Assembly (NCBI RefSeq): GCF_055900595.2 | Contig: NZ_CM148325.1 | Direction: 5' to 3' (one strand) | Length of the DNA stretch: 64,000 nucleotides | The notes under the pieces: generated by a model | The model's database searches: none | The model's input: only the letters and a program-made list of their open reading frames with translations | Told to the model about the DNA's origin: nothing | Program-made: the position numbers and the translations under genes | Shown: in pieces, positions 46,256 to 49,586 of the stretch | Layout: the number at the start of each line of letters is the position of its first letter | Numbering within the stretch: the stretch's first letter is position 1

Positions 46256-47539
46256 TTAGTCTTTGGTTGTTGCATTTTGTTTATGAAATAGTTCACGGAA
46301 CACCGGATAAATATCATCCTGGTCGCGGATATGCTGCATCGCAAAATTGTCGAAAGTAGATTGCAGATGTTCATATTCTCGCCACAGTGTCTGATGAGCG
46401 CGACGGGTAATTTCGATATAGCTGTAATAACGAACAACGGGCAATAATTTTTTCGCCAGGATTTCATGGCAAAGTGGAGAGTCATCGGCCCAGTTATCGC
46501 CGTCCGATGCTTGTGCCGCGTAAATATTCCATTGCGCCGGGTTATAACGCTCTTTCACCACCTCATCCATCAGTTTCAGGGCGCTGGAAACAATGGTACC
46601 GCCAGTTTCCTGTGAGTAGAAAAACTCATGTTCATCGACTTCTTTCGCTTGGGTATGGTGCCGGATGTAAACGACTTCCACGTTCTTATACGTTCTGCTA
46701 AGGAACAGATACAGCAGAATATAAAAACGCTTAGCCATATCTTTAGTGGACTGATCCATTGAACCCGAAACGTCCATCAGGCAAAACATCACTGCCTGGC
46801 TGGAGGGATCGGGTCGTTTTTCGTAGTTCTTGTAACGTAAATCGAAGGTGTCAATAAAAGGGACGCGTTCAATTTTGGCACGTAATTCTGCAATTTCTTT
46901 GCGCAGACGTTCCTCTTCCAGCAGTTGCGCAGGCTCACTGTTGCTGATGATGGCCAAATTCTCTTCCAGCGCATGAAGTTCCCGCCGCTTGCCCGCCGTC
47001 ATGGCTGTGCGTCGCGCCAGTGAGTTCTGCAATGAACGCACAACGCTGATATTGGCAGGAACGCCGTTAGCGGTATAACCCGCCCGATGCGTTTTATATT
47101 CGGTCAGCTGGCGTTGTTGGTTTTGTTTCAGATTCGGTAAGGCCAAATCTTCAAAGAGCAGATCAAGATACTCATCTTTCGAAATCTGAAAGACAAATTC
47201 ATCCTGACCTTCACCATCCTGGCTGGCCTGGCCCTGACCACTGCCGGAACCACCGCCGCCGCCTTGGGGGCGTTCAATGCGGTCATTCTGAACGAAATGG
47301 TCATTGCCCGGATGAACGCGGTGGCGCAGGCCGCCACGTCCCTGATGAAACATCGGTTCGCTAATATCTTCCGTTGGAATGGATACGGACTCGCCGCTGT
47401 CGACGTCAGTCACCGAACGCTTATTAATGGCCTCGGAGATCGACTGTTTAATTTGCGCTTTATAACGGCGTAAAAAACGCTGGCGATTCACCATGCTTTT
47501 GTTTTTGCCGTTCAGACGCCGGTCAATAAACCAGGTCAT
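46256..47539 (-). CDS. yeaH: DUF444/UPF0229 protein YeaH
   Basis: 427-aa [49 protein letters not shown]..., Gly-rich low-complexity segment. Confidence 0.92.
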
Positions 47540-47651
47540 ATGCCCCCCGTACTACATTTGCCAACTGTTTGCTACGCCTGTGTTGCCGCTTCTCTGGCCC
47601 ACGGTTCGCTGTCGTTGTAGGCCCGGTAGCATGCGTACCGGGCCATGGTTG

Positions 47652-49586
47652 TTAAGACGATTTACGTACGCGCAAATACCATTCGCACAGTAAACGCACC
47701 TGTTTACGGGTGTAGCCTTTTTCCATCATACGGTCGACAAAATCGTCGTGTTTCTTCTGCTCGTCGGTTGACGTTTTGGCGTTAAACGAAATAACCGGCA
47801 ACAGCTCCTCGGTATTAGAGAACATTTTCTTCTCAATAACCGTGCGCAGTTTTTCATAGCTGGTCCAGTTCGGATTGCGTCCGCTGTTATTCGCTCTGGC
47901 GCGCAGTACGAAGTTGACAATCTCGTTGCGGAAATCTTTTGGATTACTGATCCCCGCCGGTTTCTCAATTTTCTCCAGCTCAGCGTTGAGAGATTCGCGG
48001 TCAAATAGCTGCCCGGTATCCGGGTCGCGATACTCCTGATCCTGAATCCAGAAATCTGCATACGTGACATAACGGTCAAAAATGTTTTGTCCATATTCAG
48101 AATAGGATTCAAGATACGCAGTCTGAATCTCTTTACCGATAAACTCGGCATATTTCGGAATCAAGTAACCTTTCAGGAACTCGAGATAACGCTCAGCCTG
48201 CTCCTGAGGGAACTGCTCGCGCTCGATCTGCTGTTCCAGGACGTAGAACAGATGAACAGGGTTTGCTGCCACTTCCACGTGGTCGAAGTTGAACACGCGA
48301 GAGAGGATCTTAAACGCAAAACGCGTGGACAGACCGTTCATCCCTTCATCAACGCCTGCGTAGTCACGATATTCCTGATACGACTTGGCTTTCGGATCGG
48401 TGTCTTTCAGACTTTCGCCATCATAAACCCGCATCTTCGAATAAATGCTGGAGTTTTCCGGCTCTTTCAGACGCGAAAGAATGGAAAAACGAGACAGCGT
48501 TTCCAGCGTGCCAGGTGCGCAGGGGGCGTGAGTCAGTTCACTGTGATTAAGCAATTTCTCGTAGATTTTGATCTCTTCGGAAATACGCAAGCAATATGGC
48601 ACCTTCACGATATAAACACGATCGAGGAAGGCTTCGTTGTTCTTGTTATTACGGAAAGTGACCCATTCGGATTCGTTCGAATGGGCGAGAATAATCCCGT
48701 TAAACGGCAGGGCGGAGATACCTTCCGTCCCGTTGTAGTTACCTTCCTGAGTGGCGGTTAACAGGGGATGCAGCACTTTAATCGGGGCTTTAAACATCTC
48801 GACAAACTCCATGATCCCCTGGTTGGCGCGGCATAGTGCACCGGAATATCCGTAGGCGTCCGGATCGTTCTGCGCGTAGTGTTCGAGTTTACGGATATCG
48901 ACTTTCCCTACCAGCGCTGAGATGTCCTGGTTGTTCTCATCGCCAGGTTCCGTTTTGGCGATAGCAATTTGTTGCAGAATTGACGGCCAGACCTTTACCA
49001 CCCGGAACTTAGTAATATCGCCACCAAATTCATGCAGGCGTTTTGCTGCCCACGGCGACATGATGGTGCCAAGATAGCGTCGAGGAATGCCATACTCTTT
49101 TTCCAGAATCTGCGCATCTTCTTGCGGATTGAAAAGACAGAACGGATGATCGTTGACCGGGCTCCGCTCACCGTTAGCGCTTAATACATAGATCGGCACG
49201 AGCTGCATTAATGATTTCAGTCGCTCAGCAAGCGATGATTTACCCCCACCCACAGGCCCCAGCAGATACAGGATTTGTTTCTTCTCCTCCAGCCCCTGAG
49301 CCGCGTGTTTCAGATAAGAGACAATCTGTTCAATCGCGTCTTCCATGCCGTAAAACTCTTCAAAGGCTGGGTAACGTGCAATGACCCGGTTAGAAAAGAG
49401 TCGAGAAAGTCTGGGTTCCTGGGCTGTATCGACCATGACAGGCTCACCGATAGCCATCAATAGCCGCTCAGCCGCGTTGGCATAAGCACTGCGATCTTGC
49501 CGACAAGTGGTAAGAAACTCCTGCAGTGTGAACTCTTCGTTCTTGGCAGCTTCATATCGCTGGCGATAGTGATCGAATATATTCAT
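47652..49586 (-). CDS. yeaG: PrkA-family serine protein kinase YeaG
   Basis: 644-aa ORF MNIFDHYRQRYEAAKNEEFTLQEFLTTCRQDRSAYANAAERLL..., Walker A-like LLGPVGGGKSS. Confidence 0.95.
   Translation of the reverse strand: MNIFDHYRQRYEAAKNEEFTLQEFLTTCRQDRSAYANAAERLLMAIGEPVMVDTAQEPRLSRLFSNRVIARYPAFEEFYGMEDAIEQIVSYLKHAAQGLEEKKQILYLLGPVGGGKSSLAERLKSLMQLVPIYVLSANGERSPVNDHPFCLFNPQEDAQILEKEYGIPRRYLGTIMSPWAAKRLHEFGGDITKFRVVKVWPSILQQIAIAKTEPGDENNQDISALVGKVDIRKLEHYAQNDPDAYGYSGALCRANQGIMEFVEMFKAPIKVLHPLLTATQEGNYNGTEGISALPFNGIILAHSNESEWVTFRNNKNNEAFLDRVYIVKVPYCLRISEEIKIYEKLLNHSELTHAPCAPGTLETLSRFSILSRLKEPENSSIYSKMRVYDGESLKDTDPKAKSYQEYRDYAGVDEGMNGLSTRFAFKILSRVFNFDHVEVAANPVHLFYVLEQQIEREQFPQEQAERYLEFLKGYLIPKYAEFIGKEIQTAYLESYSEYGQNIFDRYVTYADFWIQDQEYRDPDTGQLFDRESLNAELEKIEKPAGISNPKDFRNEIVNFVLRARANNSGRNPNWTSYEKLRTVIEKKMFSNTEELLPVISFNAKTSTDEQKKHDDFVDRMMEKGYTRKQVRLLCEWYLRVRKSS

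Follow-up and report, generated by a model that had tools for sequence, protein, structure and literature searches.

The stretch of DNA analysed here, 64,000 nucleotides (nt) of contig NZ_CM148325.1 from assembly GCF_055900595.2 and called the window in the following, carries the canonical chromosomal yeaGH operon of Escherichia coli, intact and in its usual place. Positions 46000..50100 were matched by megablast in 5425 of 5426 complete E. coli genomes, the features beneath the match being yeaG, yeaH and mipA, and the annotated neighbourhood is that of the ordinary yea region (gapA, yeaD, yeaE, mipA, yeaG, yeaH, cdgI, dgcJ onward), with the divergent open reading frame (ORF) at 50022 identified as MipA by Pfam. 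yeaG and yeaH are a real conserved gene pair rather than a chance pattern. The identity of the locus, its promoters, its control by a small RNA (sRNA), the separation from ycgB and the assignment of the second gene product to the vWA proteins are already known or annotated, and the window copy represents a core operon at its textbook position, with published regulation and nothing unusual about it. The interest lies in the protein family, which affects the survival of and the recovery from starvation and features extreme conservation, and whose chemistry is disputed, with published claims for a kinase, for a protease and for neither. The explanation favoured here, which we hold to be rather probable as a whole, would combine the canonical operon and its dual-promoter and SdsR regulation with a three-protein machine of YeaG, YeaH and the ycgB product. 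The idea of such an AAA+/vWA/SpoVR machine stems from the protein family and not from the window sequence.

The family assignments are clear-cut on the level of profiles. YeaG scored 623.5 bits against PF08298 (AAA_PrkA) and 239 bits against PF06798 (PrkA C-terminal domain), and it passed the NCBIfam equivalog model NF011999 with 1341 bits (cut-off 576) over residues 1-644 of 644, which places it in the PrkA family as the YeaG equivalog. Likewise, YeaH matched PF04285 (DUF444) over its full length (636 bits, profile positions 2-418 of 418) and passed the enterobacterial equivalog model NF003708 with 843 bits (cut-off 466). A preliminary description of this DNA, made from the letters and their ORF list, had proposed a co-oriented pair of a PrkA-family kinase gene and a DUF444 gene with a 112-bp spacer and a 435-bp upstream region, the counterpart of Bacillus prkA-yhbH and poorly defined in function. 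The layout proved correct to the base according to the ORF list, the same spacings being present in K-12 MG1655, and both gene identities were borne out by the Pfam and equivalog models. The kinship with the Bacillus pair also stands, as the same Pfam families are matched, and YeaH reached 238 bits against the sporulation YhbH model TIGR02877; this lies below the equivalog cut-off of 468, and YeaH is therefore a homologue and not an equivalog of YhbH, belonging to a different subfamily. The description of the function as poorly defined remains valid, although physiological roles have been published. Genes, orientation and homology were thus described accurately, whereas the word kinase is supported neither by the profile and model tests of this analysis nor by the work on Bacillus PrkA (PMC9512850; PMC13001217).

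YeaG, YeaH and the third partner YcgB

In an alignment of 113 homologues sharing 37-58% identity, residues D256, S258, S260, T315 and D346 of YeaH are invariant. These DxSxS...T...D residues are those of the metal ion-dependent adhesion site (MIDAS) of vWA domains, and the C-terminal half of YeaH is a vWA domain with a complete MIDAS. For Rhizobium etli, the product of the second gene had been described as a vWA protein before (PMC3188799), and a review on E. coli from 2018 lists YeaH as dissimilar to any described protein. In YeaG, the Walker A motif is invariant in the homologue alignment, and the protein, with its P-loop and AAA+ core, is an AAA+ ATPase. Its C-terminal domain (residues 382-644) matched only PF06798, its own family, in Pfam, where kinase families gave no match at E <= 10, and a YeaG profile search of all sequences of the PDB likewise returned no kinase chain up to this threshold. 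Helices alone make up the AlphaFold2 model of residues 380-644, which is devoid of an N-lobe beta-sheet. Moreover, the alignment showed no invariant His in this domain, which means that the HRD catalytic loop is not conserved. As far as profiles, alignment and model can tell, YeaG would not qualify as a Hanks-type Ser/Thr kinase, and its C-terminal domain is probably not of this type. The vWA domain with its MIDAS in YeaH and the helical, kinase-profile-free C-terminus of YeaG together led us to view YeaG and YeaH as an AAA+ ATPase and its vWA partner and not as a kinase module. Besides, the two most invariant stretches of YeaG, EPGDENNQDISALVGKVDIRKLEH and APIKVLHPLLTATQEGNYNGTEG (residues 214-249 and 267-291, window ~48714..48947), are the parts of lowest confidence in the monomer model, with a predicted local distance difference test (pLDDT) score < 50, as would be expected for loops that gain order only upon oligomerisation or substrate binding.

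The third partner was followed through loci retrieved with YeaG, comprising 32 loci of Enterobacterales and 47 loci of other gammaproteobacteria, namely Vibrionales, Alteromonadales and Aeromonadales. The gene order was yeaG followed by yeaH in every locus examined. In 45 of the 47 loci outside the Enterobacterales, yeaH is immediately followed by a gene of ~500-520 amino acids (aa) matching SpoVR, the two exceptions being a truncated contig and a Bowmanella locus; two of these downstream genes were confirmed by Pfam as SpoVR plus SpoVR_C (E ~1e-182), and a SpoVR gene was also found directly downstream in six of seven distant contigs. Among the Enterobacterales loci comprising yeaH and downstream DNA, no SpoVR homologue was present within 2.6 kb except in Brenneria (1.7 kb downstream), and it was adjacent in none. 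Accordingly, no SpoVR homologue was detected in the 64-kb window, where cdgI follows yeaH, so that this locus is not a three-gene operon. The co-occurrence check on ycgB suggested by the preliminary description showed that this gene accompanies the pair but elsewhere in the genome; it was found in 5421 of 5426 E. coli genomes, its position being between dadA and fadR (beside dadAX and fadR). This split in Enterobacterales and adjacency elsewhere agree with the published view of one operon in most bacteria that is split in E. coli. In addition, yeaG, yeaH and ycgB are mutual best cofitness partners in six bacteria (10.1101/072470). The constant adjacency of the two genes and the genetic tie to the SpoVR gene were both counted in favour of an AAA+/vWA/SpoVR machine.

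The region upstream of ycgB (L090 2149-2477, E. coli XH990) carries TTCTATGCTTGAA, which we take to be a sigma-S-like extended -10 element, and the sigma-54 consensus was not found in this region. A sigma-S-like element without a sigma-54 consensus suggests that ycgB would share only the sigma-S input with yeaGH.

Physiologically, the operon, switched on by NtrC and sigma-54, serves as a 'brake' in long nitrogen starvation (PMC4664914, PMC6299236), with yeaG, yeaH and double mutants featuring the same phenotype (PMC4664914). In the mechanism that we propose, YeaG, YeaH and the unlinked YcgB would form one ATP-driven machine, in which the vWA-MIDAS partner might tether or present a client and the ATPase ring might remodel it, by analogy with NorQ-NorD and RavA-ViaA; the outcome would be the published slowing of metabolism in long starvation. 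For this coupling of an ATPase ring to a client, leading to the starvation 'brake', the arguments for and against appear evenly balanced. A wider version, in which YeaG is the motor of an AAA+/vWA-MIDAS/SpoVR machine imposing metabolic quiescence and in which the mobile set, borne complete by jumbo phages, megaphages and smaller phages next to their replication genes, presumably reprograms host metabolism, is offered more tentatively and may well not hold.

Rival readings and the window allele

The view that YeaG is a true eukaryote-like (Hanks-type) Ser/Thr kinase, which signals through the phosphorylation of regulators, for instance effectors of MetJ or of toxin-antitoxin modules, with YeaH and YcgB as accessory signalling proteins, corresponds to the annotation and to the opinion of the main E. 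coli papers. Several observations weigh against our interpretation of YeaG and its control, and two of them point to a kinase: the K426A variant, altered in the proposed kinase domain, fails to complement a yeaG deletion (PMC4664914), and a weak kinase activity in vitro, with autophosphorylation and phosphorylation of casein, was reported for YeaG (Tagourti 2008, as cited in later work). A third one, the ATP-dependent and phenylmethylsulfonyl fluoride-sensitive cleavage of alpha-casein by B. subtilis PrkA (PMC9512850), would fit a Lon-like ATP-dependent protease that degrades regulatory proteins in starvation, and Lon was the only PDB family besides PrkA that was touched by the YeaG profile. 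Furthermore, the structural arguments given above are based on AlphaFold2 models, the AAA_5 match of YeaG stays under its cut-off (18.2 bits against 22, residues 107-133 only), and a recognisable strong NtrC site was not found in the 435-bp region (best 8/14). Nevertheless, a kinase is hard to reconcile with a C-terminal domain that matches PF06798 alone, with a PDB profile search free of kinases, with an all-helical model of residues 380-644 that is missing the N-lobe sheet and with the variable His; an in vivo substrate is not known. Kinase activity was not seen with purified PrkA proteins of Bacillus (PMC9512850; PMC13001217). In the case of the protease, Lon chains align only to YeaG 76-129 (~55 residues at the P-loop/Walker A, E ~1e-3), a Lon protease domain was not matched in Pfam, and 24 h were required for the reported activity. 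B. anthracis PrkA of high purity exhibited neither kinase nor protease activity, and an E. coli amidohydrolase was revealed as contaminant in a cruder preparation (PMC13001217). We therefore regard the kinase as unlikely and the protease as more improbable still, and retain the AAA+ ATPase with a vWA partner. With its below-threshold AAA_5 match and a RavA match of E = 0.26, YeaG is not a member of the MoxR family; the analogy to MoxR-vWA pairs is therefore one of architecture, in the sense of 'works like' and not of membership. A Foldseek search of the YeaG model against a PDB library without 9xip yielded only weak AAA+ matches (E >= 4e-3).

A different kind of alternative concerns the origin of the pair, which could be a mobile or phage-derived module in the window strain, for instance cargo or part of a defence island. 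The three-gene set does occur on phage-like contigs and in jumbo phages, and yeaG shares 95.1% of its nucleotides with K-12, a stronger divergence than that of its neighbours. However, the same locus with the same neighbours is present in 5425 of 5426 E. coli genomes, the G+C content is ordinary (0.44-0.53), PADLOC defence models gave no real matches, mobility genes were not found nearby, and the divergence is almost entirely synonymous. Synteny and prevalence effectively refute this origin, to which we attach hardly any probability. The occurrence in phages is a property of the protein family and not of the window.

The comparison with K-12 MG1655 leads to the same canonical operon. There, yeaG (b1783, 1866908-1868842) and yeaH (b1784, 1868955-1870238) are separated by an identical 112-bp spacer, follow an identical 435-bp region and have the same order and neighbours, with mipA divergent upstream and cdgI downstream. 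Of the 3826 positions of the operon region, 159 differ (4.2%, i.e., 95.8% nucleotide identity), making the window copy an allelic variant only. Across both genes, 137 nucleotide differences fall in synonymous codons and four in three amino-acid-changing codons: yeaG accounts for 94 of the former and for a single difference in its sole changed codon (D16N), yeaH for 43 and for three differences in two changed codons (A425T and G427D), which both lie in the C-terminal tail of the protein. No difference from K-12 occurs in the 244 nt preceding the yeaG ATG (100% identity), a segment that holds the SdsR site as well as the sigma-54 promoter and the sigma-S -10 element; all six upstream differences are located at -245 or beyond, and the spacer differs at 5 of 112 nt, which is the background level. 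The few amino acid changes and the unchanged 244 nt therefore indicate a strong constraint on both proteins and on the promoter/leader segment, but not on the spacer. The allele is rare, with only 11 of 5425 genomes being at least 99% identical to the window copy, and functionally unremarkable.

Among 19 genes compared with K-12, yeaG is the most diverged (95.1% nucleotide identity against a window average of 97.3%), with one amino acid change; recombination or weak codon bias are candidate causes of this high synonymous divergence. Further observations concern the surroundings of the operon. In cdgI (44635..46110), the 1476-nt alignment with K-12 contains one gap, and the coding sequence (CDS) given by PGAP in an identical strain is shorter (1344 nt), for which reason the 5' end of cdgI may be frameshifted. 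The ydjE-ydjL sugar-acid cluster of ~9 kb, which K-12 has between yeaC and pncA, is missing from the window strain, and a SIMPL-domain gene together with an IS200/IS605 tnpA lies near sppA (both observations: window ~54793..55484 and L001 30757-32177).

Distant YeaH homologues are often encoded on phage-like contigs with the full PrkA-DUF444-SpoVR set (Table 1), adjoined by genes for DNA polymerase A, YqaJ and 5'-3' exonucleases, primase and a single-stranded DNA-binding protein. Between YeaG and its counterparts on distant metagenomic contigs, most of them phage-like, the identity amounts to 57-74%. YeaH homologues are also encoded in four megaphage records of ~600 kb; three of these proteins are full-length, with 38-41% identity, and PHROGs holds one family for each of the three proteins. 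Besides, the phage record MN688132.1 (Enterobacter phage LAU1, 30.8 kb) contains at 2025-3305 a yeaH annotated as YeaH that is 93% identical to that of the window, which looks like host chromosomal DNA brought into a phage record by transduction or by an assembly artefact.

Promoters and RNA-level control

The promoter motif scan of 49587..50021, also advised in the preliminary description, revealed both a sigma-54 and a sigma-S motif. For sigma-54, the exact pattern TGGCAY-N5-TTGCW has a single match in the window, with 0.29 matches expected by chance. Consensus, spacing and distance to yeaG all agree with a putative sigma-54-dependent promoter, whose transcription start is predicted from the GC element at ~49679 (-93); this coincides with the 5' end of the published yeaG reporter leader, which extends from -93 to +63 (PMC10954441). 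The motif occurs at a similar distance in 24 of the 32 Enterobacterales loci and in none of the 47 loci of Vibrionales, Alteromonadales and Aeromonadales. In an alignment of 15 Enterobacterales upstream regions, the CTA of the second motif is invariant and its flanking bases are nearly so. We take this motif to be a very good match to the consensus of the sigma-S extended -10 element. According to the literature, the operon features adjacent sigma-54- and sigma-38-dependent promoters. A scan for sigma-70 promoters returned five sites against 5.1 expected and is uninformative.

The same alignment shows a block of invariant columns upstream of both promoters, where an upstream activator site would be expected, which makes it a candidate activator-binding region. 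IHF, CRP and Nac were considered for this block and rejected by eye, as no consensus match was seen. Scoring every 17-mer of the 435-bp upstream region against the NtrC site TGCACCA-N3-TGGTGCA gave no strong match, and the best value is reached by ~1% of all window positions, i.e., it is no better than chance. In the absence of a convincing NtrC consensus, the action of NtrC therefore rests on published chromatin immunoprecipitation (ChIP) and expression data, in which NtrC is bound here and a 36-fold induction was recorded. Taken together with these published functions, two tandem promoters would drive the operon, a sigma-54 promoter responding to NtrC in nitrogen starvation and a sigma-S-type promoter ~55 nt further upstream.

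At the RNA level, the sRNA SdsR represses the translation of the operon, and its pairing at -31 to -22 of the 5' untranslated region (5'UTR) was validated with compensatory mutations (PMC10954441). SdsR damps yeaG translation by pairing just upstream of the ribosome-binding site. The site is kept in most Enterobacterales according to locus comparison and alignment, and the local duplex of the yeaG site with nt 24-46 of K-12 SdsR was calculated at -19.4 kcal/mol; this local calculation was used in place of a full-length SdsR/UTR duplex prediction, which was over-extended and meaningless. The folding of the 5'UTR compared with shuffled sequences (z = 0.47) gave no evidence of a structured leader, and a 136-nt stretch with the spacer folds no better than shuffled sequence either (z = 0.86), a 9-bp REP-like hairpin being its sole conspicuous element. 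A Rfam scan of the whole window returned no match in or beside the operon; elsewhere, it recovered an STnc490 Hfq-binding sRNA (57585..57708), a cspA-type thermoregulator leader (8662..9121) and the sRNA sroD (28169..28254).

The spacer contains this 9-bp hairpin, which we read as an element similar to repetitive extragenic palindromic (REP) sequences; it is not followed by a U-tract on the sense strand, and one or two REP-type hairpins occupy the same place in other Enterobacteriaceae. Such a hairpin between the genes may act as a barrier to 3' exonucleases, and the intrinsic terminator after yeaH would end the operon. The length of the spacer ranges from 16 to 229 nt across loci. Its last ~28 nt before the yeaH start (47540..47570, minus strand), which contain the yeaH ribosome-binding site, are conserved across Enterobacterales, the rest varying in length and content; this 3' end reads AAGTTGGCAAATGCAGTACGGGGGGCAT in Citrobacter and other E. 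coli loci, from which the window differs by one base.

Table 1. Coordinates of the yeaGH operon, its predicted control elements and the phage-borne three-gene sets.
Feature	Record	Positions	Strand	Description
yeaG CDS	window	47652..49586	minus	644 aa, ATG start (six-frame ORF list)
yeaH CDS	window	46256..47539	minus	427 aa, ATG start; DUF444/YeaH-YhbH family
yeaG-yeaH spacer	window	47540..47651		112 bp
Intergenic region upstream of yeaG	window	49587..50021		435 bp; bounded by the GTG start of divergent mipA (plus) at 50022
Predicted sigma-54 (-24/-12) promoter TGGCATGAGAGTTGCT	window	49690..49705	minus	104-119 nt upstream of the yeaG ATG
Sigma-S-type extended -10 element TCTACGCTTAA	window	49752..49762	minus	~55 nt further upstream than the sigma-54 promoter
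Conserved upstream block GGATGAGTTGTTGATATGCCATTGAAA	window	49799..49825	minus	~120-146 nt upstream of the sigma-54 start; upstream of both promoters
SdsR sRNA pairing site CCTGTGCTAAAA	window	49606..49617	minus	yeaG 5'UTR, about -31 to -20
REP-like 9-bp hairpin GGCCCGGTA...TACCGGGCC	window	47620..47644	minus	8 nt past the yeaG stop, within the 112-bp spacer
Intrinsic terminator, 9-bp stem CAGCCGGGT...GCCTGGCTG then TTTTTT	window	46215..46249	minus	Stem 46225..46249, begins 6 nt past the yeaH stop
Complete PrkA-DUF444-SpoVR set, phage-like contig	L082	628-5516
Complete PrkA-DUF444-SpoVR set, phage-like contig	L084	4051-9662
Complete PrkA-DUF444-SpoVR set, phage-like contig	L086	4063-8668
Complete PrkA-DUF444-SpoVR set, phage-like contig	L089	3892-8735
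Set of the isolated Ralstonia jumbo phage RsoM2USA	L094	2485-7301		ORF30-29-28

Comparison with known systems

Beyond E. coli, the closest parallels are the prkA-yeaH-spoVR (ycgB) operons of Vibrio, Shewanella and Pseudoalteromonas, whose first two genes are orthologous to those of the window and arranged in the same order; in the non-Enterobacterales loci, YeaG is 82-89% and YeaH 64-77% identical to the window proteins. Rhizobium etli likewise has a prkA-yeaH-spoVR operon (PMC3188799). In contrast to these other Proteobacteria, the third gene is separated in Enterobacterales, and the sigma-54 promoter is restricted to this order (24/32 versus 0/47 loci). The prkA-yhbH pair of Bacillus subtilis shares the Pfam families (PF08298 and PF06798 for the first protein, PF04285 for the second), but control is exerted by sporulation sigma factors in Bacillus and by sigma-54/NtrC and sigma-S in the window.

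The sole solved relative of YeaG is the Thermus PrkA of entries 9xip, 9xiq and 9xir, named 'Serine protein kinase' and ~26% identical to YeaG. The match to 9xip covers residues 21-629, with E = 7e-51 for the single sequence and 3e-69 for the profile. The sequence of 9xip is 94-96% identical to named Thermus PrkA proteins and identical to metagenome sequences, and no paper on this structure turned up in the literature collection that was searched. In terms of architecture, the pair resembles Midasin and the MoxR-type pairs of an AAA+ ATPase and a vWA-MIDAS protein, i.e., NorQ-NorD, RavA-ViaA and CbbQ-CbbO, although YeaG is not MoxR by sequence. Unlike the MoxR pairs, YeaG carries an extra PrkA-specific domain of ~260 residues, and the third obligatory partner is a SpoVR-family protein.

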